64,000 nt of DNA. Source: an uncultured Actinomycetes bacterium (GTDB lineage Bacteria > Chloroflexota > Dormibacteria > Aeolococcales > Aeolococcaceae). The notes beneath the pieces were generated by a model that saw only the letters and a program-made list of their open reading frames with translations, was not told where the DNA came from and ran no database searches. The stretch is taken from contig CAZCJX010000006.1 of the NCBI GenBank assembly GCA_964499205.1, forward strand, positions 2,533 to 66,532, written 5' to 3'. Numbering within the stretch: the stretch's first letter is position 1; every line of letters starts with the position of its first letter. A program made the translations under genes and the position numbers. Below, in pieces: positions 13,219 to 54,452 of the stretch.

Positions 13219-13258
13219 CGCGGGAAGTCTCCGATTCGGCAGAAGCGCATCTGCACAC

Positions 13259-15429: not shown

Positions 15430-15452
15430 CTCTTCTCTCTGACCTCGCTGCC

Positions 15453-32551: not shown

Positions 32552-32588
32552 TGACAACGTTGACATGGGGTGGCCGGCCGCCGATAAT
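32552..32588 (+). promoter_or_regulatory. Promoter for the beta-helix gene with operator 4 (32552-32565, TGACAACGTTGACA) over the -35
   Basis: TTGACA (32560-32565)-N17-GATAAT (32583-32588). Confidence 0.8.
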
Positions 32589-34865: not shown

Positions 34866-34884
34866 GTTTCGGCGTTGACGGGCG

Positions 34885-34938
34885 TTGACATTGGGGGTCC
34901 CCGCGCCTACACTCAGGACGGCGTAGACAACGTTGTCA
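34885..34938 (+). promoter_or_regulatory. Promoter of the 35-52.8 kb operon with operator 5 (34925-34938, AGACAACGTTGTCA)
   Basis: TTGACA (34885-34890)-N17-TACACT (34908-34913); palindrome just downstream of the predicted TSS. Confidence 0.85.
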
Positions 34939-35002
34939 TAAGGTTGGGAGTCGCGCTTTGCGCCAGCAGATTCACGGGAGTCGCGCGCATGCGACACGGG
35001 CG

Positions 35003-35584
35003 ATGTGCGGACTGCTCGTGATCGGCGCCGGCATGTCGGTCTCCGGTTGCTCGGATCTGACTCCCCTCTCGATCCGCTTCGTCACCAACGCGCCGCCCGC
35101 GCCGGCGCGTGTGACCAGCGGTGACTACGTGCTCTCCGGTGGAGTCAACGCACACCTCGCCGACCAGGCCGGCTTCTGCGGCAACGTCTCCTCGTCGGGC
35201 GGCCAGCAGCTGTTCCTCGCCGTTCTGCTGGCGGATGACGGCGTGACCCAGTCGTTCGTCCGCCTGTCGGTGCGGCCAGCGCAGGCCTCCACCGGGACAC
35301 CCGCCCACACCGGGACATTCGACCTGTCCCGCGCCGGCCTCGTCGTGCAGCTGGGAGTGAACCCGGCGACGCTCTCCCAGGGCCTCGATCCCAAGGCGCG
35401 GACGTTCCGGGCCAGCTCCCTCCGCGTCACCGTCTCGCCGGACTCCGCGGGCAGCGTCACCGCGGTTCTGCAGGAGGTCAAGGTGGGCGCGTCCTCCACG
35501 GGCTCGACCACCCTGCAGCCGGTGAGCGGGGCGCCGACGGTCAACCTCAAGGGACGGTTCCAGTGCGTCGCGCCGGCGTCCTGA
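35003..35584 (+). CDS. Hypothetical lipoprotein
   Basis: Lipobox VSGC. True start may be ATG 34989 with a 1-nt deletion (see findings). Confidence 0.6.
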   Translation: MCGLLVIGAGMSVSGCSDLTPLSIRFVTNAPPAPARVTSGDYVLSGGVNAHLADQAGFCGNVSSSGGQQLFLAVLLADDGVTQSFVRLSVRPAQASTGTPAHTGTFDLSRAGLVVQLGVNPATLSQGLDPKARTFRASSLRVTVSPDSAGSVTAVLQEVKVGASSTGSTTLQPVSGAPTVNLKGRFQCVAPAS

Positions 35585-35934
35585 TCGGCGTGACCACCGC
35601 GCTCCTGACCCTTGCCGCCTGCGGCGAACCGGCGGAGACCAACGCGCCCATCCACCTGTCGGGCGCGCTCAACGGCGTCTACCACCCCGGCCCCCCGGCC
35701 AGCTGTGGCACCGGCACGACGACGGTGCTGGGCCAGTACGGCCCCAACAGCACACGCGACGTGGGCACCATGACCGTCTCGGACGACGGTTCGGTGTCGT
35801 TCGACGTGTGGAAGGGCCCCTCGTTCTTCGGGCGCGGCGTGGCATTCCGGCCCGGCCACGGTTGGGATATCGACGCCCAGCTGCACGGTCCGGCCAGTGA
35901 GACGGTGACGGCGACAGGGCACCTGCCGTGCTGA
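35563..35934 (+). CDS. Hypothetical lipoprotein
   Basis: MRRAGVLIGVTTALLTLAAC: canonical lipobox LAAC. Confidence 0.75.
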   Translation: MRRAGVLIGVTTALLTLAACGEPAETNAPIHLSGALNGVYHPGPPASCGTGTTTVLGQYGPNSTRDVGTMTVSDDGSVSFDVWKGPSFFGRGVAFRPGHGWDIDAQLHGPASETVTATGHLPC

Positions 35935-38210
35935 CGCATCCCCGCGTTCAACAGCTCGGTGCGCTGATCCTGCCGCGCCTCGAGCTGGTCGTCCTCGTCG
36001 CCGTCGCCCTCGGTGCCTTCGCACTCCCGGGCCGCGCGGTGGGGGGAAGGACCGTTCCCGTTGGGATTCTGGTCATCGCGCTCTCACAGGCGGGCAGCCT
36101 GGCGTTGCTCGCCGCCGGCCTGGTGCTCGTCTACCGCTCGAACCGCATCATCAACTTCGCGCAGGGCGCGCTCGGTGCCGCCTCCGGCTACCTCTTCTAC
36201 AACGTCGTCGTGCATCGTGAGCTGCTTCACCTGCTCGGCAACATCGGCCTGCCGGTGGGCGACAACGTGTTCACCGCTGGCTACCCGTGGCAGGTGCTCA
36301 ACTTCGTGGTCGCCGGGCTGGCCGCGCTGCTCATCGCTCTGCTGGTGGGGCTGCTCGCCTACTTCGTCGTCATCCGCTGGTTCCAGAAAGCGCCGCCACT
36401 GACGGTCACCGTGGCCACCATCGGCATGTCGTACCTGGTCACCACGCTGCTCCAGCTTCCCCAGCTCCAGGCCATCTGGCCGGCCGACAACGCGACCAGC
36501 TTCCAGATGCCGTTCGACGTCATCCTGACCGTGGGCCCGGTGACGCTGCACATGCTCGACGTCGCCGCCATCGTGATCGGACCGCTGGTTCTCGCCGGAC
36601 TTGGCCTCTACCTGCGCCGTTCGCGGATCGGCATCGCGCTGCGAGCCTCGTCGGCCAATGCGGACAGGGCGAAGACTCTGGGCATGCCGGTGGCGACGGT
36701 CACCTCGGTCGCCTGGATCCTCGCTGCCCTGCTGTCGGGCGTCGCCAGCATCCTCCTCGCCGCCTCCAGCAACAACAGCGGAACCGGCGTGGGGGGCCAG
36801 TCCGGGGCCAGCAACGGTTTTCCCGCCGACCTGCTGGTCACAGTGCTCGCCGTCGCGGTGGTGGCCCGGATGCGCAGCCTGCCGCTGGTGATGGTCGGTG
36901 CGGTCTGCCTGGCGGTCACCGAGCAGTCGCTGGTCTGGAATCTCAACTCGAGCGCTCTGTTCCAGGTGTTCCTGCTGGGGCTGATCGTCGTCTTTCTGCT
37001 GGTGCGTCGCGAGCAGCGCGGGCGGGTGGACGTCGCCGAGGAGACCTTCGCCGCGGCGCGTGAGGCTCGTCCCACCCCGCCGGTGCTGCGCGTGTTTCCC
37101 ACCGTTCGCAACCTGCGCTGGCTGCTCTGGGCGGTCGCCGCCATCACCCTGGTGCTCTTCCCGTGGGTGGCTCCGCCCGCCACCATCGAGGGTGCGACGG
37201 TGGCGATCGTCTACGCGATGATCGGCCTGTCACTCTTGGTGTTGACCGGGTGGGCCGGCCAGATCAGCCTCGGCCAGTTCGCCTTCGCGGGCATCGGCGC
37301 GTACATGGCCGCGCTGCTCGGCGGCACGGCCGGGATGCCGATGTTTCTCGCCGTCATCGTCGGCGCTGTCGCCGGCGCCCTGCTGGCGACGGTGATCGGG
37401 CTGCCGGCCCTGCGCCTGCCGGGGCTGAACCTCGCGGTGGTGACGCTGGCCGTGGCCATCGCCACGACGGCCGTGCTGCTCAACCCGAACTACCTCGGCC
37501 ACTTCCTGCCGACCAAGCTGAATCGCCCCGGGCTGCTGGGGCTCGACGGCGAAGACCCGCACGTGTACTTCTACCTGATCCTCGTCCTGCTGGCCGCCGT
37601 CGCGCTGTCGGTCATGGGCCTGCGGCGCAGCCGCCTGGCCCGCGCGCTGATCGCGTCGCGCGACAACCCCTACGCGGCGCAGTCGTTCGGAGTCAGCCTG
37701 TTCGCGGCGCGCCTCAAAGCGTTCGCCATCTCCGGTTTCATCGCCGCGCTGGCCGGCGGACTCTTCGCATACGAGCAGCACGGCGTCCACACCGAGAGCT
37801 TCACCGCCGACTCCAATCTGCTCCAGTTCCTCACCGCCGTCACCGGCGGCCTCGGCTCGGTGATCGGGCCGATGCTGGGAGCCGCAGTGGGATTCGTGCT
37901 GCCGCTGCTCAATCTGCCCGTCATTTCCACCGCGGGCATCCCGGTGCTGGCGCTGGTGCTGCTGCTGTTCTACCCGAGCGGCCTGAGCGGCATCGCCTTC
38001 GGGCTGCGCGACGTCGTGTTGCGGCGGGTGGCGACGCGTCACCGCATCGACGTGCCCAGCCTGCTGCGCGGCAGCGTCGCCGATCGCCGCCATGCACGCG
38101 CACCGCTGGCACCGCGCAAGCAGGACGCGACCCTGGCGGAGGAGGCGCCCTACCGGATCACCGCACAGTGGACCTACGCCGGCAGCGGCGCGGGTGACGG
38201 CGAGCCATGA
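35928..38210 (+). CDS. Branched-chain-type ABC permease, fused LivH+LivM
   Basis: 'GLVLVYRSNRIINFAQG', 'GIALRASSANADRAKTLG', 'LTGWAGQISLGQFAFAGIG', 'ARALIASRDNPYAAQSFG', 'GGLGSVIGPMLG'. Confidence 0.9.
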   Translation: MLTHPRVQQLGALILPRLELVVLVAVALGAFALPGRAVGGRTVPVGILVIALSQAGSLALLAAGLVLVYRSNRIINFAQGALGAASGYLFYNVVVHRELLHLLGNIGLPVGDNVFTAGYPWQVLNFVVAGLAALLIALLVGLLAYFVVIRWFQKAPPLTVTVATIGMSYLVTTLLQLPQLQAIWPADNATSFQMPFDVILTVGPVTLHMLDVAAIVIGPLVLAGLGLYLRRSRIGIALRASSANADRAKTLGMPVATVTSVAWILAALLSGVASILLAASSNNSGTGVGGQSGASNGFPADLLVTVLAVAVVARMRSLPLVMVGAVCLAVTEQSLVWNLNSSALFQVFLLGLIVVFLLVRREQRGRVDVAEETFAAAREARPTPPVLRVFPTVRNLRWLLWAVAAITLVLFPWVAPPATIEGATVAIVYAMIGLSLLVLTGWAGQISLGQFAFAGIGAYMAALLGGTAGMPMFLAVIVGAVAGALLATVIGLPALRLPGLNLAVVTLAVAIATTAVLLNPNYLGHFLPTKLNRPGLLGLDGEDPHVYFYLILVLLAAVALSVMGLRRSRLARALIASRDNPYAAQSFGVSLFAARLKAFAISGFIAALAGGLFAYEQHGVHTESFTADSNLLQFLTAVTGGLGSVIGPMLGAAVGFVLPLLNLPVISTAGIPVLALVLLLFYPSGLSGIAFGLRDVVLRRVATRHRIDVPSLLRGSVADRRHARAPLAPRKQDATLAEEAPYRITAQWTYAGSGAGDGEP

Positions 38211-41200
38211 TCGAAACGCCGCGCGTCGCCACCAGCGAGCGGCCGATGGCGCCCTCCCCGCGCGAGGTGAGCGAGGGCCATGCGCCGATCGAGTCGCAGA
38301 GACCGCGCGCCGTGCGGACCGAGGAGCGGTCGCCGGCGGTGCCGTTGAGCCGGCGCGGTGGCGACGCTGTGCGCGAGCTCGATCCTCGGAGGGTGACCGA
38401 AGGATTCAGCCCCTTTCCCATGCTCGTTTTCGGCCTCATGGGGTTCGTCGTCGCAGTGCAGGGCCAGGCGCTCGCCGTGGTGCTGCCCCAGGCGCAGGCG
38501 ATCGGCGTCAGCGCCGCCGCGCTGGGTGTCCTGGTGAGCTTCATCAACGGCGCCTTCAACATCGGCGGCGTCGGCCTCGGCTACCTGGCTGACCGCTTCC
38601 GCATCCGCGTCGTCTTTCTGCGCGCCGGCCTTGCCGTCAGGACGGTCGGTGCACTGATGATCGGCTTCGCCGCCGGCCCGGCGGCGTTCGTCACCGCCAA
38701 CCTCATCGGTGTCGCCGGCAACCTCGCCGCCCAGCCGCAGGTGAGCATCCTGCGAGACGTGTATCCCGTGGCGCAGACGCTGCGGGCGGGATTCTTCAAC
38801 GCCAAGCTGCAGCAGCTGGCCATCGTGATCGGACCCACGCTGGCGGGGGTGGTGACGGTGTGGGTGGGATGGCAGTGGATGCTCGTCCTCGTCGGCCTGC
38901 TCAGCATTCCGGTGGTCTGGATGAGCTTCCATCTCCGCGAGCCGCGGCAGGGCGGCGTCGACGCGCCGGAGAGCGCGGACACGGAGGGCCAGCCGCCGAT
39001 CAGCTTCGGCCACGCCCTGGCCATGCTGTGGTCGATCAGGACGATGCGGCTCATCCTCCTGGCCTATCCCTTCCTGGCCATCGCCGCCATCGTCGTCCCG
39101 TTCTCCGGGATCTACTTCGCGGCGCAGTGGCAGCTGGGGCCTGTCACCCGTGGCCTGGCGATCTCCTCGGCGGGCGCGGTGTCCGTCGTCGGACTGATCG
39201 TCTTCACGCCCCTGATCCGCTCCTTCAGCGAGTACAAGCAGGGAAGGCTCCTGAGCATGTCGGCGCTGCTGCTCGTCTGGCAGGCGCTGTGTGCGATCGG
39301 CATGGTGGTGGCGCCGAGCCTGCCCCTGGCCCTCGCCGCGTTCTGGGGCGTGGCCCTGGTGTACGCGATCGTCGCCCAGACCGTGGCGAGCCTGGTGCAG
39401 GCGATCGTCCCCGCTCGCATCCGCACGCTGGGCGTGGAATCGCTGAGCTTCATGGCCATCGTGGTCCCGCTGTATCTCCTGGTGGCTCCCACCGTGATGA
39501 CCGCGCTCTTCGGCGCCATCGGCATCACCGTCACGCCCGGAGTTAAAAGCGTCGCAGGCTATGTGCCTGCGATGCTGATCGGCGCCTTCTTCGTCGCCCG
39601 TGCCGCTCGCATGGTCGAGCCCGACATTCGCAGCGCGATCTCGGTCACCATCGCCGAGGCGGTGGTCGGCGAAGCCCGCGCGCAAGGCCGCAACACGCTT
39701 CTCGTGTGCCGCGGCCTCGAGGTCGAGGTGGGAGGCGCGCAGATTCTGTTCGGTGTCGACCTCGACGTCGAGGACGGCGAGGTGGTGGCCCTGCTCGGCA
39801 CCAACGGAGCCGGCAAGTCGACGCTGCTGCGCGCCATCTCGGGTGTGCACCACGCCTCGTCGGGCGGCATCTTCTACGACGGGGAGGACATCACCCACGC
39901 TCCGCCGCACGCCAACGCGCGCCGCGGGATCGTGATGCTGCCCGGCGGCCACGCTGTGTTCCCGGAGATGACGGTGGCCGACAACCTTCGTGCCGCCGCC
40001 TGGATCGACCGCAGCGACGCCCGGGAGGTCCAGCAGCGCGTCGACGATGTGCTCTCCCGCTTCCCGCAGCTGCGCGAGCGGCTGTCGGTCATGGCCGGCT
40101 CGATGTCGGGTGGCGAGCAGCAGATGCTCGCCGTGTCCCAGGCGTTGCTGATGCGACCGCGGCTGCTGATGATCGACGAGCTGTCGCTGGGACTCGCGCC
40201 GCGCGTGGTGGAGCAGCTGCTCGGCATCGTCCGGGAGATCAACGCGGACGGCACCACCGTGATCCTCGTCGAGCAGTCGGTGAACGTCGCCCTGGAGATC
40301 GCGTCGCGCGTGGTGTTCATGGACCACGGCGAGGTGCGCTACGACGGACCGGCGGACCGCATCCACGAGCACCGCGAGATCTTCCGCGCCGTGTTCCTCA
40401 CCGGCGGTGCTGAGGTCAGTCGCGGGCCGCGGGCGCGGACCGACCTCTCAGCCGGCGACGAGACGGCCCTGAGCGTCCGGGACCTGCGCGCCACCTTCGG
40501 CGGTGTGACCGCGCTCGACGGCGTGTCGCTCGACGTCCGCGCGGGGGAGATCGTCGGCTTGGTCGGCCCCAACGGCGCGGGCAAGACGACGCTGTTCGAC
40601 GCCATCTCCGGTTTCGTGGCGGTGCGCTCCGGCACCGTGTCGCTGCTCGACCACGACGTCACGGCGAGCCGCCCCGAGGTGCGCGCGCAGCTCGGCCTCG
40701 GGCGCTCATTCCAGAACGTGCGCCTCTTCCCCGCCTTGACGGTGCGGGAGAACCTCACCGTCGCGCTCGACCGGGCGGGCGGGTCGCGGAGCAGCCTCGC
40801 CGCCGCGTTCTGGCTGCCCACCCATGGCAGCAGCGAACGGCGCGCGCAGCGCCGCGTCGAGAGCCTGATCGAGACGCTGGGCTTGCAGCGCTACGCCGAG
40901 AGCTTCATCGGCGAGCTGTCGACGGGGACGCGACGGATCGTCGACTTCGGCTGCATCATCGCCAGCGGACCGCGGGTGCTGCTGCTCGACGAGCCGTCGA
41001 GTGGGCTCGCGCAGGCGGAGGTGGAGGAGCTCGGTCCGCTGGTGTCGCGCATCGCGCGCGACCTGAGATGTGCCGTGCTCATCACCGAGCACGACCTCGG
41101 TCTGGTGGCGTCGATCGCCGCGCGACTCGTGGTGATGGAGCTGGGACATGTCTTTGCCGAGGGCGAGCCCTCCGCTGTCCTCGGCGATCCGGCCGTCCAG

Positions 41201-41329
41201 GCCTTGCTGGCAGGCGGAACCAGCACCGGCCTGCACCGGTCGGGCGGGCGTCGAGCCCTCGAGCCTCTGCTGGGTTCGAACGGCAAGGGTCGAGTGGAGA
41301 CAGCGACGCTGAGAGAAGTCGATCGATGA
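38207..41329 (+). CDS. MFS-like domain fused to two ABC ATPase domains (LivF-type then LivG-type)
   Basis: Multi-TM MFS-like N-half (GYLADRFR loop motif); NBD1 GTNGAGKS/MSGGEQQ/LMIDE/VEQ; NBD2 GPNGAGKT/LSTG/LLLDE/TEHD. Confidence 0.85.
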   Translation: MIETPRVATSERPMAPSPREVSEGHAPIESQRPRAVRTEERSPAVPLSRRGGDAVRELDPRRVTEGFSPFPMLVFGLMGFVVAVQGQALAVVLPQAQAIGVSAAALGVLVSFINGAFNIGGVGLGYLADRFRIRVVFLRAGLAVRTVGALMIGFAAGPAAFVTANLIGVAGNLAAQPQVSILRDVYPVAQTLRAGFFNAKLQQLAIVIGPTLAGVVTVWVGWQWMLVLVGLLSIPVVWMSFHLREPRQGGVDAPESADTEGQPPISFGHALAMLWSIRTMRLILLAYPFLAIAAIVVPFSGIYFAAQWQLGPVTRGLAISSAGAVSVVGLIVFTPLIRSFSEYKQGRLLSMSALLLVWQALCAIGMVVAPSLPLALAAFWGVALVYAIVAQTVASLVQAIVPARIRTLGVESLSFMAIVVPLYLLVAPTVMTALFGAIGITVTPGVKSVAGYVPAMLIGAFFVARAARMVEPDIRSAISVTIAEAVVGEARAQGRNTLLVCRGLEVEVGGAQILFGVDLDVEDGEVVALLGTNGAGKSTLLRAISGVHHASSGGIFYDGEDITHAPPHANARRGIVMLPGGHAVFPEMTVADNLRAAAWIDRSDAREVQQRVDDVLSRFPQLRERLSVMAGSMSGGEQQMLAVSQALLMRPRLLMIDELSLGLAPRVVEQLLGIVREINADGTTVILVEQSVNVALEIASRVVFMDHGEVRYDGPADRIHEHREIFRAVFLTGGAEVSRGPRARTDLSAGDETALSVRDLRATFGGVTALDGVSLDVRAGEIVGLVGPNGAGKTTLFDAISGFVAVRSGTVSLLDHDVTASRPEVRAQLGLGRSFQNVRLFPALTVRENLTVALDRAGGSRSSLAAAFWLPTHGSSERRAQRRVESLIETLGLQRYAESFIGELSTGTRRIVDFGCIIASGPRVLLLDEPSSGLAQAEVEELGPLVSRIARDLRCAVLITEHDLGLVASIAARLVVMELGHVFAEGEPSAVLGDPAVQALLAGGTSTGLHRSGGRRALEPLLGSNGKGRVETATLREVDR

Positions 41330-42360: not shown

Positions 42361-42372
42361 AGACAGCTCCCC

Positions 42373-43668: not shown

Positions 43669-46487
43669 CAACGGTCGCCGAGCCCGAAGTTCTTCAGGGC
43701 GTTCCAGCCGATCCACCCTCGCCGCAGCGGGCGCCTGGTCCGGAGCCGGTCGATGGCGCCGAGCAGCGTCCCCAGGTGCTGTCCCTCGCCGGCGCCGCGT
43801 TCTGCTCGTCGGTCGCCGCCATGCTGCTGGTGGGTGGGCTGTTCCAGGGCGTGCTGCCCCGGCTGATCGCCGTCGTCGTGCCCGCCGTCGGCGTGGGGTT
43901 GGTGGCCTACGGCATCAGGAGTCGGCGACTGTGGCCGCAGCTCGCCGCCATCCCGGTCGGTGCGGTCCTCGGCGCTGTGCTGGTCGTGCCCGAGACCAAC
44001 GGCCAGGGAAGCTCCAACATCGTCGACGCCGTCCTCTCCGCGATTCGCGGCGGCGGCCTTCTCCAGCCGCCGGTGTCGTTCGACCCCGGCTGGAGGTTCA
44101 TCGTCACCCTCATCGCCTGCGGGCTGGGCGCCGGCACGCTTGCCGGCGCAGCCGCGTTCGCCAAGCCGCGCCTCGCCGTGGTCATCCCCGTCCCACTGGC
44201 GATGCTCGCCGAGTTCGTCCAGCCGAAGTCCACCGAGGTGATCGGCACCGCGGTTGCCGCGGTGCTCATCGTCGGCGCGCTGGGTTTCTCCTATGGCGCG
44301 GAGCTGCAGGCGGAAGGCGCGGTGCGCACGGGCTCCTTCGAGCTCCGCCGCATGGCGCGCACCGGGAGCCTGGCGGTCGGCCTGCTGGTCGCCATCCTCG
44401 CGCTGGGCCAGACGTCGTTCCTCTTCCCGCAGCCCAACCGGAACGACGTCACGCCACCGCAGAAGCCGCATGCGGCGCCACCGCAGGCGGATCGTGCGCT
44501 GTTCACCTACCAGGTGCAGAACGGCAACAAGATCCCCTTCCGCATCGGCACCATCGACATCTACGACCCCAAGCAGAATGCCTGGCTGCTGCCGCCCTAC
44601 GACACCAATCGGCTGCACGACATCAGCAACGGCCAGGTGCCCGGCGGTCCCCCCGCAAAGGGCAGCACGTACACCGTCACGGTGACGATCGCCGACGCCC
44701 AGGGCCATGTGCTTCCCGCCGTCTACGGCACCGCCAGGATCAGCGGGCTGTCCGCGCCGATCAAGATCGATCCGCGCACCGGCATCCTCCAGCTGTCCGA
44801 CCGCCCGGTCGGCAGGGGGATGACCTACCAGCTCAAGGTGGCCGCGCCCCCCACCGGGCAGGCCCTGGCCACGGCGGGCAAGCCGGAGGCGGCCTACGCG
44901 CAGTTCCTGCAGGTGCCGACGCCGCCCCTGGCGGTGCAAGACCTGTTGAGCAAGGCGCCCGCCGACCCCTTCGACCGGATGCAGTACCTGCGCAACGCGC
45001 TGCTCACCAAGGTGGTCGCCAGCGGCGCGGGCACGCCGGTCGACCTGCCCGTCTCACGCGTACCCCAGATGCTCAAGGGCGCGCAGGCGTCACCCTACGA
45101 GATCACCGCGGCGGAAGCCCTGCTGGCTCGATGGGCGGGCGTGCCCTCGCGGATCGGCTACGGCTACTACGACGGGCCCGCACTGAAGAACGGCGCCCAC
45201 GAGATGCGGCCGAAGAACGGGGCCACCTGGCTGGAGGCGTACTTCAAGGGATACGGCTGGGTGCCGGTGGTGGGCGTGCCCCAGCAGGCGAAGAGCAGCG
45301 CCGACAACAACGACAAGAATCGCAACGACCTGATCAGGCCCGCGTCCGAGCTCAGCGTGGTGATCTACGTTGCCACCCGGGACACGTCGCCGCTGCTCTA
45401 CTTCCAGATCGTCGGCTATTACCTCGGCCTCGTGCTGCCGTGGGTGGTACTCGCGGTGCTGCTGCTGATCGCCCATCCGGCGCTGGTCAAGGTGGTGCGC
45501 TTCGTGGCGCGACGCCGATGGGCCGCGAAACGAGGACCAGCGGCGCGCATCCTCGTCGCCTACACGGAGTTCCGCGACCTTGCCAACGACCTCACCTACG
45601 GCGACCCCACCGCGACGCCGCTGGAATACCTGAACTATGTCCAGGACGACGTCGAGCACGCCGATCTCGCCTGGCTGGTGACCCGCGCGATGTGGGGTGA
45701 CATGCGCAGGGACCTCACCGAGGAGGACGCCGCGCACGCTGAGGCGCTGAGCCGATCGCTGATCAGGCGGCTGGCGCGCGCGCAGAACGTCGTCAACCTG
45801 GTCTCGGCGGCGATCGCCCGGACATCACTGCGGCAACCCTTCTCCGATGCGCCACCGCGCATGTGGCCACGCCGTCGCAGCACTGCTCGCCCGGGGATTC
45901 GCGCGCGGCTGCGCAGCCTCCGCCGCAAGACCTGGCGTGCGCGCGTCGCTGGACTCCTGGGCTTGTTCCTGCTCGCCGGGTGTGGCGGTGACAGCCAGTT
46001 TCGCGGACCACACACGCTGCGCAGCGGCCTGACGCCGGCCTCGATCGGCGACCTCAGCCTGGTCCGCAACGCCAGGCTGGAGCGGCAGTACCTCACCGCG
46101 GCGTCGTCGAAGGTGGTGACCCAGGGAGAGGTCTGGCTGGTGCACGAGGGCGATGTCATCCAGGGATCGGTGCAGATCTCGCTGCTCGCCCCCGACGTGC
46201 GTGCCGACGATCCCTCGGTGCGCGCCGGGCTGGACGACGGCATCGGCGGTGTCGCGTTCACGCCCGTGCTCATCACCAGCGACCAGCTGGTGTGGGTCAA
46301 GCAGGAGGTGAACCAGCGCGTCTACCTGTGGTTCCCGCCGCGCAGCAACGCCATCGAGCTGGTGATCCTGCGTCTCCAGTTCAAGAACAGCCTGAGCCTG
46401 GTCAAAGGCCTGGTCGACTACCAGCACGGACGCAAGCCGCAGGGGGCGTCGCCGTCGCCCTCGGCGAGCACAGGAGCGAGCGGATGA
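43665..46487 (+). CDS. Multi-TM transglutaminase-like (TgpA-type) protein lacking the catalytic triad, with lipoprotein-like C-terminal module
   Basis: 'LLARWAGVPSRIGYGY', 'TWLEAYFKGYGWVP' match the TGase core; ATGA-coupled to DUF58. Confidence 0.8.
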   Translation: MTTVAEPEVLQGVPADPPSPQRAPGPEPVDGAEQRPQVLSLAGAAFCSSVAAMLLVGGLFQGVLPRLIAVVVPAVGVGLVAYGIRSRRLWPQLAAIPVGAVLGAVLVVPETNGQGSSNIVDAVLSAIRGGGLLQPPVSFDPGWRFIVTLIACGLGAGTLAGAAAFAKPRLAVVIPVPLAMLAEFVQPKSTEVIGTAVAAVLIVGALGFSYGAELQAEGAVRTGSFELRRMARTGSLAVGLLVAILALGQTSFLFPQPNRNDVTPPQKPHAAPPQADRALFTYQVQNGNKIPFRIGTIDIYDPKQNAWLLPPYDTNRLHDISNGQVPGGPPAKGSTYTVTVTIADAQGHVLPAVYGTARISGLSAPIKIDPRTGILQLSDRPVGRGMTYQLKVAAPPTGQALATAGKPEAAYAQFLQVPTPPLAVQDLLSKAPADPFDRMQYLRNALLTKVVASGAGTPVDLPVSRVPQMLKGAQASPYEITAAEALLARWAGVPSRIGYGYYDGPALKNGAHEMRPKNGATWLEAYFKGYGWVPVVGVPQQAKSSADNNDKNRNDLIRPASELSVVIYVATRDTSPLLYFQIVGYYLGLVLPWVVLAVLLLIAHPALVKVVRFVARRRWAAKRGPAARILVAYTEFRDLANDLTYGDPTATPLEYLNYVQDDVEHADLAWLVTRAMWGDMRRDLTEEDAAHAEALSRSLIRRLARAQNVVNLVSAAIARTSLRQPFSDAPPRMWPRRRSTARPGIRARLRSLRRKTWRARVAGLLGLFLLAGCGGDSQFRGPHTLRSGLTPASIGDLSLVRNARLERQYLTAASSKVVTQGEVWLVHEGDVIQGSVQISLLAPDVRADDPSVRAGLDDGIGGVAFTPVLITSDQLVWVKQEVNQRVYLWFPPRSNAIELVILRLQFKNSLSLVKGLVDYQHGRKPQGASPSPSASTGASG

Positions 46488-47554
46488 GAGAGATGAGCGC
46501 GATTCGCCGGGTGGCCGTCGCCGGCGCGCTGGTCAGCCTGTGCGGCTGCGGCCTCAAGCCTCCGCAGCAGTTCGGTGCCCACCCCTACCCGCAGGACGTG
46601 CAGCTGGGTGCGCAGACGTCGCCGACGTCGGTCCCGGCACCGCTGGCCAAGGGCGCCAACATCGAGCCCGGCACGCCGGGCTTCCTGGTGCCGCCGATCC
46701 CCTCGGCGCCGAGCACCTTCACGCCCTTCGCCTTCGCACCGCCCACGCCGCACCCCTGCCCGACGGCCGACCCGCTGGCGCCGCTCAGCGACCAGGCGGC
46801 CGCCGACGTGCAGGCGGCGCCGAAGCCTGGCGTCTACCACTACCGTCAGTCCGGCAGCTATGCGCTGAAGGGCAAGCCCGCGGTGGCCTACCCGCCGAGC
46901 GTCGACATCACCATCGGCCAGTCCTACGTCGGACGCATCGTCGCCCAGGGCCAGCACGACCCCACCGACACGTCGATCTACTGGGACCAGACGGAGAAGT
47001 CGATCGCCCCCAACGGGTGGGTGGACGCCACTATCACGTACACGTTCCGCCTGTCGCACACCAAGGGAACTCCGCCGCTCTCCCAGGACAGCGGTGAGAT
47101 CGACATCTACGCGGTCACCGTGCAGACCGCGAATGGCACCGACACCTTCCAGCCACAGGGTCCCGACCCCGCACCGATCGTGCTGCTGCCGGCAACCGGT
47201 CAGCCGTCGTGGAACGACCAGTCGGTCGACGGTCTGCACCAGGAGACGTTCGACGACGCTGCCGGCTACCACGGCGAGAAGGACCACGTCGATGCCTGCG
47301 GCAAGCTCATCGACGCCTACCGGATCGACCTCGGTCCGCTGGAGCCGGCCACCGGCACCGGGACACCGACCAAGACGCAATCCAGCTTCCACTACGAGAC
47401 CAACAGCACTCTCGACTACAACATCGACGGGTGGTACGACATCGCCACCCAGGACGGTGGACTCGTGGTCGCCGAGCACATCACGGAGACGGCGATCGAC
47501 GGGAGCTGGACCAATGACCGCACCCTGACCATCAACTCGGTGCAGCCCGGCTGA
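46484..47554 (+). CDS. Hypothetical lipoprotein
   Basis: ATGA overlap; IRRVAVAGALVSLCGC lipobox; Pro-rich linker, then a beta-rich domain. Confidence 0.75.
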   Translation: MREMSAIRRVAVAGALVSLCGCGLKPPQQFGAHPYPQDVQLGAQTSPTSVPAPLAKGANIEPGTPGFLVPPIPSAPSTFTPFAFAPPTPHPCPTADPLAPLSDQAAADVQAAPKPGVYHYRQSGSYALKGKPAVAYPPSVDITIGQSYVGRIVAQGQHDPTDTSIYWDQTEKSIAPNGWVDATITYTFRLSHTKGTPPLSQDSGEIDIYAVTVQTANGTDTFQPQGPDPAPIVLLPATGQPSWNDQSVDGLHQETFDDAAGYHGEKDHVDACGKLIDAYRIDLGPLEPATGTGTPTKTQSSFHYETNSTLDYNIDGWYDIATQDGGLVVAEHITETAIDGSWTNDRTLTINSVQPG

Positions 47555-48807
47555 TGCGCTGGCTGAGTCGCATGGCGATGGTCCTGCTGGGCAGCACGCT
47601 GCTCTCGGGTTGCGGCGCTGCCTTCGAACTGCCGCAGGGACCGGACGCGAACAAGCACCTGGTGGCGAGGATCCTCGTCGACCTGCCGCCGGAGCTCCGT
47701 CCCGCGGCGCAGCTGGCCATCGACGACATCAACCGGCTCCATCCCAGCGAGTTCGAGCAGACCACCGTCGTGGCCGTCTACGCCGACGACACCTTCGAGG
47801 GACAGATCGACACGGGCACGGCCAAGACACACCTGCACGACCGCCTCGACGACGGCACCATCCTCGGCATGGTCGGCCCGTACAACCTGCAGCTGGCGCG
47901 CGCGCTGCTGCCGATCGCCAACCAAGCGGATCTTCCCGTGTTCAGCCCCACGCTCACCGACGAGTGCCTCACCCAGCAGGAGAGCTTCTGCACTCGCGGC
48001 GAGCCCAACTCGCTGCGTCCGCACAACGCCAGGGCCGGGCAGCCGGGTGACCTCACCTTCTTCCGCGTGCCACCGGTGCAGGGCAGGCAGGCCAAGGCGG
48101 CAGCGGACTATGCCTCGGGGGCGCTGGCGAAGAGCAACGCCTTCCTGGTCGTCGACAACACTCCGGTGGCAACGCGGATGGCCGACGACTTCACCGCGCA
48201 ATGGCAGCTCCAGGGTGACACGATCGCCGGCAGAGCCTCCGTCGACACCGCCGCCAGCCCGGACCTCAACCTCCTGGCGGGGCAGATCCAGGCGGCCAAG
48301 CCTGACGTCGTCTACCTGGCCACCACGGATGAGCCCGCCGTCGCCCACCTCGGCGGGTTGCTCAGCGGCCACGGGTCGCTGCCGCTGATCGTGCCGGACG
48401 CGCTGCACACCACGCAGATGGCCGAGGCCGCGCAGAGCTGGACCGGAGCGCAGCTGCTGGTCACGTCTCTGAGCGGCGATCCGTCGCTGGTCTCCGCCGA
48501 ATTCGAGCACGAGTGGGCGGGGCTGCATCGCGGCGATGCCCCGCCCTACGCGCTGGAGACGTGGCTGGCGACGAACGCACTCATCCAAGCCATCCGGACC
48601 GGCAGCCAGGTCCTCGTGGAGCAGCAGGTGACGGCCATTCCAAGCCGGGACGTGGTCGACGCCGCGGTGCCCACCATCCAGGTGCCAACCGACGACCTCA
48701 ACGGTCTGCATTTCGACAGCCATGGCGACAACGGGAGTCAAATCGTGACGATCTTCACTGCCAGCAAGGGACGCTGGACGTCCCCCGCCGAACAGCAGGC
48801 GGCGTGA
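47554..48807 (+). CDS. Branched-chain-type ABC substrate-binding lipoprotein
   Basis: LLSGC lipobox; 'AAQLAIDDIN', 'LGMVGPYN', 'TFFRV', 'KPDVVYLA'. Confidence 0.85.
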   Translation: MRWLSRMAMVLLGSTLLSGCGAAFELPQGPDANKHLVARILVDLPPELRPAAQLAIDDINRLHPSEFEQTTVVAVYADDTFEGQIDTGTAKTHLHDRLDDGTILGMVGPYNLQLARALLPIANQADLPVFSPTLTDECLTQQESFCTRGEPNSLRPHNARAGQPGDLTFFRVPPVQGRQAKAAADYASGALAKSNAFLVVDNTPVATRMADDFTAQWQLQGDTIAGRASVDTAASPDLNLLAGQIQAAKPDVVYLATTDEPAVAHLGGLLSGHGSLPLIVPDALHTTQMAEAAQSWTGAQLLVTSLSGDPSLVSAEFEHEWAGLHRGDAPPYALETWLATNALIQAIRTGSQVLVEQQVTAIPSRDVVDAAVPTIQVPTDDLNGLHFDSHGDNGSQIVTIFTASKGRWTSPAEQQAA

Positions 48808-51344
48808 CCGTGGCAGCACCGAGCGAGCGCAGGCTGAGCCTCGACGGGAACGACTGGCAGGTGCTGGGTCTGGTTCCCGGCTTCCGGAGATGGCACCGCA
48901 TCGGCGCGGCGGAGGAGATCCAGGCACCGTCGATCACCGGCTGGATCCCCGCCACCGTTCCCGGTCACGTGGTCGCGGACGTGGTGGCAGCCGGCATGGC
49001 CCCCGACCCGTACACCGCCCTCAACAGCCTTGCCGCGGAATGGATCGCGCAGCGGGAGTGGGTCTACCGCCGCAGCTTCACCGTGCCCGCCGGCTTCCGC
49101 CGCGAGCGCGTCGTTCTCCACTTCGAGGGCGTCGACGACGCCTGCAAGGTCTTCCTCAACGGGTGCGAGCTCGGCAGTCACGAAGGGATGAACCGCGCCT
49201 TCGAGTTCGACGTGTCCGAGCACCTTCGCGACGGCGAGAACGTCGTCTCGGTCGCGCTGGAACAGGCGCCGTTCGAGCCGGACATCCAGGCGCAGCTCGG
49301 CAACACGCGCGACGTGCGCACGTGGAAGGTGCGGTTCACCTACTGGTGGGACTTCTCCACGCGCCTGGTGAGCACCGGCATCTGGGACAGCGTCTGGCTG
49401 GAGGCGCGTTCGGAGGCGTCGCTGCGCGATCTGTGGACCCGGACCGAGCGCACCGGCGACGGCTGGCAGCTCGAGGTGCTGGGCAACGTCGACGGCAACG
49501 GCGGCGACCTCGAGCTGGCCGTGGAGCTGAAGGACGGCGACCGTGTTGTTGCGCAGAGCCAGACGCGGGTCAGCACCGGCCCGGTGCGCCTTGCGATGCC
49601 TGCGCCGGGCGTCGATGTTTGGAACGTCAACGGATGCGGCGAGCAGCGCCTCTACCGCGCCGCGGTCGAGCTGCGCCGCCGCTCCGGCGAGGTGCTGCAC
49701 ACCGCCGCACTCCCGGTGGGCTTCCGAACCATCGAGTTCGAGCGCACGCCGGGGGCCGGCGAGGACGCGCTGCCGTACCGGGTGGTGGTGAACGGCCGTC
49801 GGATCTTCATCCGCGGATGGAACTGGGTTCCCGTCGACCAGCTGTACGGTGTCCTCCGTCCCGAGCGCTACCGCAACCTCATCGACCACGCCAAGGCCGC
49901 GGGCTGCAACCTGCTGCGGGTGTGGGGTGGTGGCCACCTCGAACGAGAGCTCTTCTACGACCTGTGCGATGAGGCGGGAATCCTGGTCTGGCAGGAGTTC
50001 ATCCAGTCGTCGTCGGGCGAGGACTCGCAGCCTGCGACCGACGCCGAATACCTCGAGTACATCGCGGCGCAGGCGGAGGCCATGGTGACGCGCCGGCGCA
50101 TGCACCCCTCGCTGGCGATCTGGTGCGGCGGCAACGAGCTCGCCGTCCATCCCGAGCGGACGCCGCTGTCGACGTCGCATCCGGCGGTGGGGGTGCTGCG
50201 CGACGTCGTGGCGCGGTTGGACCCGGATCGGCTCTTCCTGCCCACCTCGCCGTCGGGCCCGCGCTTCGATCTGATGAAGGAGGGCGGCGTCCCCGGCCAC
50301 GACGTGCATGGCCCCTGGCACTTCACCGGCGACGGCGAGTACCACCGTTTCCACGACCGCAGCGAGCCGATGCTCTACTCCGAGTTTGGCGCGGTGGGCA
50401 CCTCCGACCTCGACGCGCTGGAGCGGTACATGCCGGGCGCGCATTGGCCGCCGGACTGGACCAACCGGACGTGGGTTCACCACACGGGCTACTGGTGGAT
50501 CGACATTCGCGACGTGGAGCCGCTCTTCGGTCCGCTCCGCGAGCCGATCGAGTACGTCCGCGCCGGACAGTGGGTGCAGGCACACGCCCTGGCCTACGCC
50601 ATCGAGGCGCAGCGGCGCCGCGAGGACCATTGCGCCGGTGTCATCCCCTGGCAGCTCAACGAACCCTGGCCGAACGGTGCGCAGACGAACGCCGTGCAGT
50701 ACGGCGGCCGTGCCAAGCCGGCGTACTGGGCGGTGGCCCGGGCGTACGCGCCGCTGCTCATCTCCGCAGCGTTCCGGGGCATCAGGTGGGAGCCCGGTGA
50801 GGAGTTCACCGCGGCCGTGTGGGGCTCGGGTGCAGTGCCGGCGGGATGCACCGCACGCTGGACCATCACCGATGTCGGTGACGGAAGCGTGCGTCACGAG
50901 CAGGCGGTCACCATCGAGGGCGGCACCGGCCTGGCACAGCGGGTCGGAGCGTGCACGTGGACCATCCCGCAGGAGCCGACCCTGTGGGCCCTCGACCTTC
51001 ACATCGAGGACGGTGATGGCGGAGTCGTCGCCTCCAACCAGTACCTCTTCTCGAGCTTCGCCGAACCGCCGCTGGCGCCACTGCTGCGGTGCAGGCCGGG
51101 GCGCCTGTCGGCGGTCAGGGACGCCAGCGGAGACCTGCACGTCTCCGCGGAGGGCGCGCCGATCATCGGCGTGCGCGTGTACGCGACCGACGGCAGGCCC
51201 GGCCCCGGGGTCGGCGCCGGCTGGATCGCCGCGCTGTTCCCGGGGCGGCCGGTATCCGTGGGACAGCGACCCGGCAGGGAGATCTGCGTATCGGCGTGGA
51301 ATGCACCGGACATCGCCCTCGCACCGAGACCAGAAGGAGACTGA
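48804..51344 (+). CDS. GH2 beta-mannosidase-like glycosidase
   Basis: 'WIPATVPG', 'FEGVD', 'RGWNWVPVD', 'LRVWGGG', 'YDLCDEAGILVWQEF', 'WCGGNE' (acid/base), 'SEFG' (nucleophile), 'WQLNEPWP'. Confidence 0.9.
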   Translation: MTVAAPSERRLSLDGNDWQVLGLVPGFRRWHRIGAAEEIQAPSITGWIPATVPGHVVADVVAAGMAPDPYTALNSLAAEWIAQREWVYRRSFTVPAGFRRERVVLHFEGVDDACKVFLNGCELGSHEGMNRAFEFDVSEHLRDGENVVSVALEQAPFEPDIQAQLGNTRDVRTWKVRFTYWWDFSTRLVSTGIWDSVWLEARSEASLRDLWTRTERTGDGWQLEVLGNVDGNGGDLELAVELKDGDRVVAQSQTRVSTGPVRLAMPAPGVDVWNVNGCGEQRLYRAAVELRRRSGEVLHTAALPVGFRTIEFERTPGAGEDALPYRVVVNGRRIFIRGWNWVPVDQLYGVLRPERYRNLIDHAKAAGCNLLRVWGGGHLERELFYDLCDEAGILVWQEFIQSSSGEDSQPATDAEYLEYIAAQAEAMVTRRRMHPSLAIWCGGNELAVHPERTPLSTSHPAVGVLRDVVARLDPDRLFLPTSPSGPRFDLMKEGGVPGHDVHGPWHFTGDGEYHRFHDRSEPMLYSEFGAVGTSDLDALERYMPGAHWPPDWTNRTWVHHTGYWWIDIRDVEPLFGPLREPIEYVRAGQWVQAHALAYAIEAQRRREDHCAGVIPWQLNEPWPNGAQTNAVQYGGRAKPAYWAVARAYAPLLISAAFRGIRWEPGEEFTAAVWGSGAVPAGCTARWTITDVGDGSVRHEQAVTIEGGTGLAQRVGACTWTIPQEPTLWALDLHIEDGDGGVVASNQYLFSSFAEPPLAPLLRCRPGRLSAVRDASGDLHVSAEGAPIIGVRVYATDGRPGPGVGAGWIAALFPGRPVSVGQRPGREICVSAWNAPDIALAPRPEGD

Positions 51345-51345
51345 G

Positions 51346-52149
51346 TTGAAGCCGATGCCCACCGACAGCTTGGTGGTGGAGCTGGACCCGGACCAGATCG
51401 CCTTCTTCAAAGAGAACGGGTACTTGCAGATCGAGCGCATCACCACCGATGCGGAGATCGAATGGTTGCGCGACGTGTACGACGAGCTCTTCGTCCGCAA
51501 GGAGGGCCAGTACTGGGACCTCGCCGGCAAGATGGGGCACAAGGGGGAGAGCGACCTGCCACAGATCGTCGGCCCGGAGGAGACCTATCCGCAGCTGCTG
51601 GAGACGGTGTACGTGCGCAACACACGCCGTGTGGCCCGGCAGCTGCTCGGGGTGGGCGACGACGTAGAGCTCGACGTCTTCGGTCATATGATCCTCAAGC
51701 CACCGCGTCACGGCGCAGAGACGCCGTGGCACCAGGACGAGGCGTACTGGCCGGCGGGCTACCGCTACGAGGGCCTGTCGGTGTGGATGCCGCTCGACGA
51801 CGCGACCGTCGAGAACGGGTGCATGCAGTTCGTCCCCGGCACGCACAACCACCGGGTTGTGCAGCATCGCCACATCAATGACGATCCCACCGTGCACGGC
51901 CTCGTCACCGACCAGGTGCAGCCCGAGGGCGCCGTCGCATGCCCCATCCCAGCCGGAGCGGCGACGGTCCACCACTGCCGCATGCTGCACTACGCAGGTC
52001 CCAACCGAACGGGCAGCCCGCGCCGCGTCTACATCCAGAGCTTCACCGCGCCGGTCGAGAAGCTCGAGGGCGTCGAGGAGCGGCCGTGGCTGGTGGAGCA
52101 CGAGGTTGCCGTCGCGGAGCAGAGGTCGCGTGAAACGGGAGGGGGTTGA
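51346..52149 (+). CDS. PhyH family Fe(II)/2OG dioxygenase, copy 2
   Basis: TTG 51346 after AAGGAG; 'TPWHQDEAYW', 'WMPLDDAT.ENGCMQFVPG', 'HHCRMLHYAGPN...RR'. Confidence 0.88.
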   Translation: MKPMPTDSLVVELDPDQIAFFKENGYLQIERITTDAEIEWLRDVYDELFVRKEGQYWDLAGKMGHKGESDLPQIVGPEETYPQLLETVYVRNTRRVARQLLGVGDDVELDVFGHMILKPPRHGAETPWHQDEAYWPAGYRYEGLSVWMPLDDATVENGCMQFVPGTHNHRVVQHRHINDDPTVHGLVTDQVQPEGAVACPIPAGAATVHHCRMLHYAGPNRTGSPRRVYIQSFTAPVEKLEGVEERPWLVEHEVAVAEQRSRETGGG

Positions 52150-52183
52150 GACGCCCCCCGGGCGGACCGATGACGGTCACGCC

Positions 52184-52792
52184 GTGCGGCGAAGGAGCAG
52201 CGTCGCCCTATGCGTCACCGCCGTCGTGCTCGCGGTGTTGCTGTCCGCGTGCGGCGAAGGAACCGGCGGCGGAGGAGGGGCGGCCTTTCCTCCGCCCAGC
52301 CAGGTCCTCCTGACACGGCTCCCCGCCGGACTGCCGCAAACGCTGGCGGTCAGTCATGACCTGGCCCAGAGCGACCTCGACAGCGCGACCCCGGCCGATC
52401 CCGCCACGGTGGACGGCTTCCTCTCGCACTCCTCGTTCAACAGCGCGTCGGTTCGCATCTGGACCCAGGGCAGCAACTACGTGACGTTGCTGGCCGTCGC
52501 CTTCGACCACACCGGCGACGCCACGCGGATGGTGCAGACCGTGGTCGACAACCTGCAGGCGTCGGTCAATACCTACGTCACGCCGCACCAGGGCCTGCCC
52601 GGGTCCTACACGTTCGTCATCAGCGGCAACACCAGGGCGGCCGCCAAGAACGTGATCTGCGAGGGAGTGTGGCTGCCCGACGGCCACTACGCCATCGAGA
52701 CGCTCACCTGCAGCGATCTCGGCGCTTGGGCAACGCTCGCCGAGGAGCTCGCCAAGCAGGAGAGCGACCGGGTCAAGGCGGTCGCCGCCTGA
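52184..52792 (+). CDS. Hypothetical lipoprotein
   Basis: RRRSSVALCVTAVVLAVLLSAC lipobox; start uncertain (GTG 52130 possible). Confidence 0.65.
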   Translation: MRRRSSVALCVTAVVLAVLLSACGEGTGGGGGAAFPPPSQVLLTRLPAGLPQTLAVSHDLAQSDLDSATPADPATVDGFLSHSSFNSASVRIWTQGSNYVTLLAVAFDHTGDATRMVQTVVDNLQASVNTYVTPHQGLPGSYTFVISGNTRAAAKNVICEGVWLPDGHYAIETLTCSDLGAWATLAEELAKQESDRVKAVAA

Positions 52793-52795
52793 TCG

Positions 52796-54422: not shown

Positions 54423-54452
54423 ATTCTGGCGGAGCCCTGACATCGTTGTCAA
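54423..54452 (-). promoter_or_regulatory. Promoter of the FGGY kinase with operator 6 (54438-54451, TGACATCGTTGTCA) over the -35
   Basis: Minus strand TTGACA-ACGATGTC-N10-CAGAAT, same layout as 32502-32531. Confidence 0.75.

Follow-up and report, generated by a model that had tools for sequence, protein, structure and literature searches.

The 64,000-nucleotide (nt) stretch of contig CAZCJX010000006.1 analysed here (the window; uncultured Dormibacteria, assembly GCA_964499205.1) carries, between positions 34885 and 52792, an operon in which genes for an ATP-binding cassette (ABC) transporter adjoin genes for a MoxR ATPase, a DUF58 protein and a TgpA-like membrane protein of the transglutaminase type (hereafter the triad). 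We find that these genes almost certainly belong to a conserved, co-inherited module, found in uncultured soil bacteria. Six parts of its core lie in the operon: a LivHM permease (g3), a fusion of a major facilitator superfamily (MFS)-like domain with two nucleotide-binding domains (NBDs; g4), MoxR (g5), DUF58 (g6), a TgpA-like protein that appears catalytically dead (g7), and a lipoprotein (g8). A seventh part, the putative binding protein gm2, lies outside positions 34885–52792. At roughly even odds (a probability of about 0.5), we read the region as a repressor-controlled mannoside-utilisation locus in which a HAAT-type importer is joined to a MoxR–DUF58–dead TgpA–lipoprotein set that may remodel it.

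The original prediction, made from the letters of this stretch, had proposed that the 12 genes of the operon form a single envelope or uptake machine. The association of triad and transporter at its centre proved real and conserved. The single 12-gene machine did not survive comparison with other loci: g1, g2, g9, g10, g11 and g12 are locus-specific or occasional, and the conserved core consists of g3–g8 together with gm2, at 30723–32420 on the minus strand and beyond the range first described.

Distribution and co-inheritance of the module

All genomes compared are metagenome-assembled genomes (MAGs), and their taxon labels are those of the submitters. The source MAG is 83% complete and comprises 368 contigs; its relatives are labelled Candidatus Dormibacterota or Dormibacteraeota. 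Relatives of the module were searched for with g4, and 20-kb regions were then fetched. This word-indexed search returned only six other full-length MFS–ABC fusions, an undercount caused by the mass of ABC words among its candidates; many more loci were reached from gm2 and from the transglutaminase (TGase) domain. We counted at least 25 loci with the core in MAGs of Dormibacteria and Actinomycetota, and a single genome can hold as many as five paralogous copies. The association of triad and ABC genes, which might have been unique to the genome in which it was noticed, thus recurs across two phyla and with congruent phylogenies. The g3-g4-g5-g6-g7 run occurs five times in genome G001, twice in G002 (contig C19 of which is DASYKI010000019.1) and at least two more times in G003, and the window's own genome holds one more g3–g7 run, split over contigs C94 and C62. 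Same-genus module loci are L013–L019, L021, L022 and the genome's own contigs C62/C94. Another family of the class carries the module in two genomes (L030, L031). It is also present on metagenome contigs (L025, L028), and MAGs labelled Frankiales, Mycobacteriales, Acidimicrobiia, Egibacteraceae and Actinomycetota carry it at L036 and L038–L056. We take the copies to be old paralogues, because their identities to the window copy are only 38–46% for the transporter genes and 55–68% for MoxR.

Outside the core, gene content varied. The expectation that gene order would be conserved across genomes held for g3–g8, which recur as a unit, and failed for the other operon genes, which are not kept. No counterparts of g1, g2, g9 or g10 were found in the paralogous loci compared, which rules out these four as parts of a conserved machine. 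Homologues of g11 adjoin the module in L015, L017 and L033, and homologues of g12 occur in L014, L018/L045 and L037. Two further observations concern the surroundings of the module and its relatives. Contig C37 of the window's own genome holds two tandem variants (L035:3278–8316 and 11265–16372) in which an MFS domain with one ATPase domain precedes a permease that is fused to the second ATPase domain; these variants have no MoxR triad and are flanked by large secreted proteins of 829–852 amino acids (aa). In one Mycobacteriales MAG (L038:5355–9128), gyrA just upstream of the module contains an intein with a LAGLIDADG endonuclease.

The link between triad and transporter is specific. A profile scan for the TGase domain across species-representative genomes returned 80 loci, among which all close TGase relatives (≥42% identity) with enough upstream DNA have a permease gene and an NBD–NBD gene beside MoxR and DUF58. 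Remote TgpA-like relatives (≤34% identity) often have MoxR and DUF58 adjacent and never have ABC genes. Among the close relatives the link outlasts both loss of the MFS-like domain (L046, L047) and a rearranged gene order (L050). Pairwise distances of five core proteins, calculated from tblastn-derived segments, correlated strongly over all loci (Mantel r = 0.83–0.91) and over same-genus paralogues only (four genomes; r = 0.85–0.96, p ≤ 0.0015). Species phylogeny cannot cause the correlation in the second, same-genus set. Trees built from the same segments with FastTree, one for MoxR+DUF58+TGase and one for permease+MFS–ABC, give the same clades, including a Dormibacteria clade sister to an Actinomycetota clade. 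Congruent trees and correlated distances therefore indicate that the unit duplicates and moves as a whole.

These results bear directly on the possibility that triad and ABC genes are mere co-travelling neighbours, held together by shared regulation or hitchhiking and functionally uncoupled, with the triad retaining an ordinary envelope role. Such an arrangement would fit the occurrence of ordinary triads without ABC genes in many lineages, the existence of a transporter subgroup without the triad (L023, L024, L032), and the dispensability of MoxR in Pseudomonas aeruginosa (PMC3507681). However, every paralogous transporter keeps its own triad and none is shared, and the congruent trees, the highly correlated distances and the persistence of the link through rearrangement and MFS loss all point the other way. 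Loss of the catalytic triad, moreover, sets the ABC-linked TGase clade apart as a family of its own, with about 155 clusters. We thus regard simple neighbourhood as unlikely.

Components of the probable importer and of the MoxR–DUF58–TgpA-like set

The permease g3 (35928–38210, plus strand) is a fused LivH+LivM-type protein with two BPD_transp_2 stretches (Pfam PF02653, 161.5 bits), NCBIfam matches to LivM, UrtC, UrtB and LivH, and about 16 predicted transmembrane (TM) segments; it is present in all module loci. The fusion g4 (38207–41329, plus strand) joins an MFS_1 domain to two ABC_tran domains, the first LivF-like and the second LivG-like. The ATPase domains match UrtE/LivF (UrtE at 315 bits, above its cut-off) and LivG/UrtD (LivG at 293 bits). 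The first bears the motifs GTNGAGKS, SGGEQQ and LLMIDE, and the second GPNGAGKT, LSTGT and VLLLDE, its LSTGT signature being slightly degenerate; Walker A, Walker B and the catalytic Glu are kept in both. The MFS-like domain spans residues ~60–465 and contains about 10–11 hydrophobic segments (MFS_1 61.6 bits against a cut-off of 33.4, residues 77–407), with only a weak subfamily match to a D-galactonate transporter (29 bits).

A predicted-structure match identifies gm2 (30723–32420, minus strand) as a candidate membrane-anchored type-I binding protein of the LivJ fold. The protein (~565 aa) has no Pfam match, one N-terminal TM segment, six invariant Cys, and hundreds of homologues, mostly unnamed. 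Searches of the Protein Data Bank (PDB) with the whole gm2 sequence and with the whole g7 sequence returned only a spurious repeat-protein match. The AlphaFold2 model of gm2 (pLDDT 82.6) has LivJ-type binding proteins as its top Foldseek matches in the PDB (probability 1.0, TMt 0.64–0.68), and a gm2 homologue adjoins the module in most loci. As judged from this model and its recurrence, gm2 is the cognate, conserved binding protein of the module, and the system is therefore predicted to be a binding-protein-dependent importer. The ABC system was first described as unusual; with gm2 encoded on the opposite strand, outside the range considered, it is not short of a binding protein, nor exceptional on that count. 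Because gm2-type proteins escape Pfam, these systems may look receptor-less though a receptor is present.

Three features of the HAAT family were found at this locus: two LivH/LivM-type membrane domains, LivG- and LivF-type ATPases, and a putative type-I binding protein. A second binding protein, the lipoprotein g9 (47554–48807, plus strand; Peripla_BP_6, lipobox LSGC), is locus-specific, with no homologue in the other module loci compared. Elsewhere, L037 encodes a gm2-family protein (10001–11689) without transporter or triad, among genes for DUF4185/DUF5005 (sialidase-like), SASA esterase, SBP_bac_5 and GntR proteins. On the evidence of this locus, the gm2 binding-protein family is apparently wider than the module.

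The ATPase g5 (41326–42360, plus strand) is a MoxR-type AAA+ protein with AAA_3 (E = 1.5e-61) and AAA_lid_2 (E = 6e-20) domains and the motifs PGTGKT and VLLVDE. Its neighbour g6 (42373–43668, plus strand) begins 12 nt past moxR and matches DUF58 (PF01882, 44.6 bits against a cut-off of 23.4). An N-terminal two-TM hairpin in g6, with TM segments at 41–81, would place the DUF58 domain in the cytoplasm, on the same side as MoxR. Comparison of the DUF58 metal site between ABC-linked and ordinary triads was uninformative, as a conserved DxSxS was found in neither group.

The TgpA-like membrane protein g7 (43665–46487, plus strand) carries a Transglut_core domain (35.6 bits, cut-off 23) and a TgpA_N match (25.3 bits) that falls under its cut-off of 30. 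It comprises six TM segments, an outside region at ~249–576, a further TM segment, a conserved domain at 616–725, a lipobox-like second TM segment at ~775–790 and a 150-aa end domain, giving a predicted TM count of 6+2. A domain profile was needed to reach the solved P. aeruginosa TgpA domain 6G49 (E = 2.7e-6), because the whole-g7 search gave only the spurious match mentioned above. When aligned to 6G49, the catalytic His is replaced by Ala, Ser or Gly and the Asp by Val or Ile. The catalytic helix starts with PYEITAAEA, and no Cys is found there in any of 13 paralogues. Most of the ordinary TgpA relatives inspected keep the G[FY]C, H[AS]W.EVYF and F[ED]PT motifs. From these alignments, the transglutaminase-like domain of g7 is catalytically dead, having lost His and Asp as seen against 6G49 and Cys as seen across the 13 paralogues, in agreement with the pseudo-transglutaminase proposed at the outset. 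The family is small and has sharp limits: of 1.84 billion representatives searched, 155 clusters match at E ≤ 1e-30.

The end domain of g7 has probable homologues in L053 and L056, where they are small lipoproteins with genes of their own; this suggests gene fusion or fission within the TgpA-like family. In L017 and L022, where the TgpA genes are shorter, a small lipoprotein gene comes next after the TgpA gene, at the position of the g7 end domain. The C-terminus of g7 (window positions 45980–46487, residues ~775–940) lies behind an internal segment, LLGLFLLAGCGG, resembling a signal peptide that includes a lipobox (LLAGCGG). Three TgpA-like proteins (P0261, P0274 and P0289) are 1372–1415 aa long, ~450 aa more than the rest, and may be fused to the following lipoprotein.

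The lipoprotein g8 (46484–47554, plus strand; lipobox LCGC, no family match) has ~350 aa, and its family lies directly 3' of the TgpA-like gene in nearly all loci. It combines a linker rich in Pro with an all-beta domain in which two Cys are conserved (AlphaFold2 pLDDT 70.3). We do not claim a LolA/LmcA-like fold for g8, as those matches have E ≥ 0.01 and the confidence of the model is moderate.

Operon layout, regulation and glycan context

Since the window is ~70% G+C, genes were called from third-position GC periodicity and start-codon context. This frame plot, with inspection of start codons, gives 12 co-oriented plus-strand genes at 34958–52792, with stop/start overlaps at eight of the 11 junctions (35563, 35928, 38207, 41326, 43665, 46484, 47554 and 48804) and gaps of 12, ~10 and ~34 nt at the remaining three. 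The operon opens with two locus-specific lipoprotein genes. The first, g1 (plus strand), runs to 35584 from a TTG at 34958 or an ATG at 35003 and has the lipobox VSGC; it has no match in Pfam, NCBIfam or PADLOC and no homologue among the other module loci compared. The small g2 (35563–35934, plus strand; lipobox LAAC) likewise has no family match and no homologue among those loci. Downstream of the core and g9 come the cargo gene g10 (48804–51344, plus strand), which encodes a beta-mannosidase-like protein with Pfam domains of glycoside hydrolase (GH) family GH2; g11 (51346/51355–52149, plus strand), a recurrent accessory gene for a PhyH-family Fe(II)/2-oxoglutarate dioxygenase (E = 3.4e-36); and g12 (52184–52792, plus strand), an occasional accessory lipoprotein gene with lipobox LSAC and no family match. 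Lipoboxes are thus present in five genes (g1, g2, g8, g9 and g12), the number originally reported.

A promoter-like site, TTGACA-17-TACACT (34885–34913, plus strand), precedes the operon as a match to the sigma-70-like consensus. It is the sole such site in the 19.5 kb from 34000 to 53500, although one site against 0.6 expected is not significant alone. Its -35 hexamer is overlapped by a short direct repeat, GCGTTGAC-GG-GCGTTGAC, at 34871–34890. Terminator-like sites were fewer than in shuffled sequences (3 against 4.2 expected), and the only one on the plus strand in the operon is weak and lies within the g6 coding sequence. The arrangement first described, one promoter and operator followed by 12 co-oriented genes, was recovered in full, with the promoter-like site, a perfect palindrome and all eight overlaps in place, and the scan of 34000–53500 gave no convincing internal promoter or terminator to split the triad from the sugar genes.

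That palindrome is the best clue to regulation. A LacI-family regulator (24128–25141, plus strand; Pfam LacI helix-turn-helix (HTH) and Peripla_BP_1/3) is the candidate repressor of a local regulon. Perfect copies of the operator-like palindrome GACAACGTTGTC occur at 23977–23988, between a gene resembling class-I mannose-6-phosphate isomerase (PMI-like) and lacI, 140 nt upstream of the latter, and at 34926–34937, before g1 and 13 nt downstream of the -10 hexamer. Two sites with one mismatch each (32518–32529 and 32553–32564) lie between gm2 and the beta-helix gene g0, and another one-mismatch site (54439–54450) lies between genes for an FGGY kinase and an amidohydrolase. The window contains 14 matches with up to two mismatches against 2.1 expected, a number reached by no shuffle. 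The two perfect copies are the only ones in the 3.7-Mb assembly. Five of its 17 copies with up to one mismatch are in the window, and all are intergenic or at the 5' edge of a called open reading frame (ORF). Both hallmarks of a LacI regulon are thus present, a regulator with LacI HTH and sugar-binding domain and palindromes with a central CG before putative target operons. We infer that the LacI-family protein binds GACAACGTTGTC as the operator of a local regulon. The suggestion that the triad is sugar-regulated is plausible in light of this regulator and the five palindrome sites before local operons. The site at 54439 falls within the longest ORF of the amidohydrolase (ATG 54391), the true start of which is probably further downstream; the site also lies upstream of the divergent FGGY kinase gene, 15 nt from its start.

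The neighbouring genes have a common theme. Between the paired palindromes and the operon lies g0 (32643–34865, plus strand), a predicted secreted right-handed beta-helix protein (Pfam Beta_helix) and candidate extracellular glycan-cleaving enzyme, with a signal-peptide-like N-terminus that gives an NCBIfam LnbX N-terminal match. A divergent minus-strand operon starts with gm2 and continues with a 343-aa ORF (29701–30732) for which no NCBIfam match was found, a SASA-type acetylesterase and a GH38 alpha-mannosidase. Genes for a GH3 enzyme, the PMI-like enzyme and PfkB and FGGY sugar kinases are also nearby. The best PDB matches of g10 are beta-mannosidases (5n6u at E = 2e-78), and neither a TM segment nor a signal peptide was detected in it. 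Together these genes fit a breakdown of mannosides controlled by a single repressor.

Genes flanking the paralogous units, scanned with Pfam, extend the theme to other glycans. Units adjoin genes for GH63/MGH1-like (L014), GH31, sulfatase and GH10 (L015), GH106-like and GH78 (L018), and GH78 (L025, L030) proteins. L020 has GH3 and beta-lactamase-family genes together with a 747-aa gene whose product resembles the GH106-like protein of L018 in its N-terminus only, and L031 has GH78 and GH3 by Pfam and a GH2-like gene by BLAST match to g10. SBP_bac_5 proteins flank L019 and L025, and LacI- or GntR-type regulators stand beside some units. The GH31–GH13 fusion beside L022 (15911–19885) has 1324 aa, its GH13 part being alpha-amylase/neopullulanase-like. 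The GH10 protein of L015 (18647–19903, minus strand), located beside the sulfatase and GH31 genes, carries fn3 and lacks a signal peptide; a cytoplasmic GH10 is unusual. The glycosidases inspected had neither a signal peptide nor a hydrophobic N-terminus, which fits import of oligosaccharides followed by cytoplasmic breakdown. Taken together, the loci look like a family of nutrient-uptake modules that has diversified and that, in Dormibacteria, leans strongly towards carbohydrates.

Proposed working, alternatives and known systems

In the working we propose, the LacI-type repressor would keep the regulon off until a mannoside-derived inducer arrives. The secreted beta-helix enzyme g0 would free oligosaccharides outside the cell, and gm2, joined at this locus by g9, would pass them to the LivHM/NBD importer. 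Cytoplasmic GH2, GH38 and GH3 enzymes, the esterase, the sugar kinases and the PMI-like enzyme would then complete the breakdown. MoxR–DUF58 would act from the cytoplasm on the dead TgpA scaffold and, through it, may assemble, reset or gate the extracytoplasmic receptor and lipoprotein part of the importer. These elements differ in strength. Import of carbohydrate-derived nutrients at the window locus is probable, and physical and functional coupling of triad and importer is evenly balanced. The specific remodelling role of MoxR–DUF58, proposed by analogy, is doubtful. We infer the substrate, the direction of transport, the contact between triad and importer and the action of the ATPase, and signal peptides and membrane topology are predicted from sequence.

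Several observations weigh against a mannoside-utilisation locus served by a remodelled HAAT importer. The known HAAT systems handle amino acids, urea and amides, and none is known for sugars. The promoter and operator are predicted, as consensus matches only. L017 and L033 carry genes for an S15-family hydrolase, PhyH and SDR proteins, L013 has a transketolase-like gene, and at several Actinomycetota loci nothing beyond ROK, PMI-like, SBP_bac_5 or beta-lactamase-family genes was seen. Because some copies adjoin an S15 hydrolase, PhyH, a transketolase-like gene or nothing related to sugars, the substrate class is not uniform. The divergent-subgroup loci L023, L024 and L032 have gm2, permease and MFS–ABC genes and no triad; as they carry importer genes only, the importer can probably work without the triad. 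The scheme assigns no role to the MFS-like domain of g4, which is missing in L046 and L047, and the g8 model has no significant fold match in the PDB (none below E = 0.01).

Some of the same features would suit an envelope-building or export device, in which the ABC/MFS part moves a lipid-linked or glycolipid component, the lipoproteins carry it, and MoxR and TgpA remodel wall or membrane. The fusion of an MFS domain to the ATPases and the several lipoproteins agree with such a device, as do the weak best fold matches of g8 to the LolA superfamily and mycobacterial LmcA-like proteins (E ≥ 0.01, not significant) and the essentiality of TgpA in P. aeruginosa (PMC3507681). It is nonetheless an improbable reading. 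The module keeps a dedicated protein of the LivJ fold, its permease and ATPases belong to the importer-type HAAT family, and copies lie under LacI- or GntR-like regulators and are flanked by cytoplasmic glycosidases and sugar kinases. Up to five divergent copies per genome also suit diversified nutrient specificity better than a housekeeping envelope role.

A sensor in place of a transporter is less probable still. Here MoxR, DUF58 and TgpA would pass on the binding of a ligand at the binding protein and ABC unit, so that surface lipoproteins or enzymes are controlled; the dead catalytic triad would suggest a scaffold or binding role, and the two different binding proteins at the window locus and the slightly degenerate LivG-like signature (LSTGT) could be read in the same way. 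However, Walker A, Walker B and the catalytic Glu are intact in both ATPase domains, the conserved core is without an output domain (kinase, GGDEF or HTH), and cytoplasmic glycosidases need an imported substrate. A MoxR–vWA-type biological-conflict or defence system is scarcely credible, despite a weak Pfam bpMoxR match on g5 (E = 5.9e-7) and the MoxR–vWA ternary conflict systems described in Actinobacteria (PMC7159879), as AAA_3 is a far better match for g5, PADLOC gave no match for g5–g8, g1, g2 or g12 and generic P-loop matches only for g4, no beta-propeller or effector domain is present, and the context is consistently metabolic.

The loci may define a class of ABC importer that has so far gone unrecognised in the Terrabacteria of soil (Dormibacteria and Actinomycetota), one that depends on a binding protein and whose uptake would need a second, trans-membrane ATP-driven apparatus. 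We consider this rather unlikely. In such a class the MoxR hexamer, through DUF58, the dead-TGase scaffold and the lipoprotein, would capture, thread or release bulky surface glycans, and the module, duplicated with different sets of glycosidases, would be a functional counterpart of polysaccharide-utilisation loci made from other parts. MoxR–DUF58–transglutaminase-like sets are widespread and their function has been open for about two decades; here they have one obvious co-evolving partner, the ABC importer, and the inducible sugar-use context under a LacI-type repressor makes the function of the triad testable. Multi-copy units beside varied glycosidases also suggest glycan foraging by Dormibacteria and uncultured Actinomycetota, about whose physiology little else is known.

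HAAT importers and the MoxR(MRP)–DUF58–TgpA triad are established families, and the parts fall within them. The closest described triads have no transporter; a search of full-text literature found no description of an ABC–MoxR module. With HAAT importers (LivJ/K–LivHMGF and UrtABCDE, a family we take to be TC 3.A.1.4) the module shares two LivH/LivM-type BPD_transp_2 domains, LivF/UrtE- and LivG/UrtD-like ATPases and a predicted LivJ-fold binding protein. It differs in that the membrane domains are fused, both ATPases are fused together and to an N-terminal MFS-like domain, and the binding protein is a TM-anchored protein of ~565 aa that Pfam does not recognise. It is also permanently joined to MoxR, DUF58, a putatively dead TgpA and a lipoprotein, and its genomic context points to carbohydrate-derived substrates in place of amino acids or urea.

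For the triad, the nearest described unit is that of P. aeruginosa, where PA2875 is presumably the MoxR and PA2874 the DUF58 protein. PA2875–PA2874–tgpA (PA2873) are co-transcribed, and tgpA is essential (PMC3507681). The two units share a three-gene order whose last member encodes a polytopic protein of the TgpA type, its transglutaminase-like domain facing outward. TgpA, however, is an active transglutaminase, whereas in the module protein Cys, His and Asp are all replaced. The module protein is also the longer of the two, having one more conserved domain as well as an extracytoplasmic domain at its C-terminus, and its triad is embedded in an ABC importer operon with which it co-diverges. 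The bifidobacterial PFNA cluster (pkb2-fn3-aaa-atp-duf58-tgm; PMC8430577, PMC6803598) and the mycobacterial moxR1-DUF58-vWA operons (PMC12067865) share with the module an actinobacterial set of MoxR, DUF58 and a transglutaminase-like (or vWA) protein whose function is unresolved. They differ in carrying a Ser/Thr kinase and FN3 protein, or a vWA protein and RipA, and no ABC transporter, and they have not been reported to take part in the use of sugars.

Two broader comparisons concern logic in place of homology. In the module, as in polysaccharide-utilisation loci, an uptake core is multiplied within a genome and each copy has its own glycosidases and regulator. The loci of Bacteroidota are of the SusC/SusD type; no SusC/SusD or TonB-dependent Pfam families were found on the operon genes or their neighbours, the core here is an ABC importer with an AAA+ module, and the host envelope type is different or unknown, so that the analogy is functional only. 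MoxR/vWA systems, for their part, include client-specific remodellers, namely CbbQ/CbbO for Rubisco, NorQ/NorD for NO reductase, and RavA/ViaA. As in those systems, a MoxR-class AAA+ ATPase is here encoded with an adaptor and what may be its one client complex, but the putative adaptor is DUF58 with a membrane pseudo-enzyme, and the client would presumably be a membrane transporter, some parts of which are extracytoplasmic.

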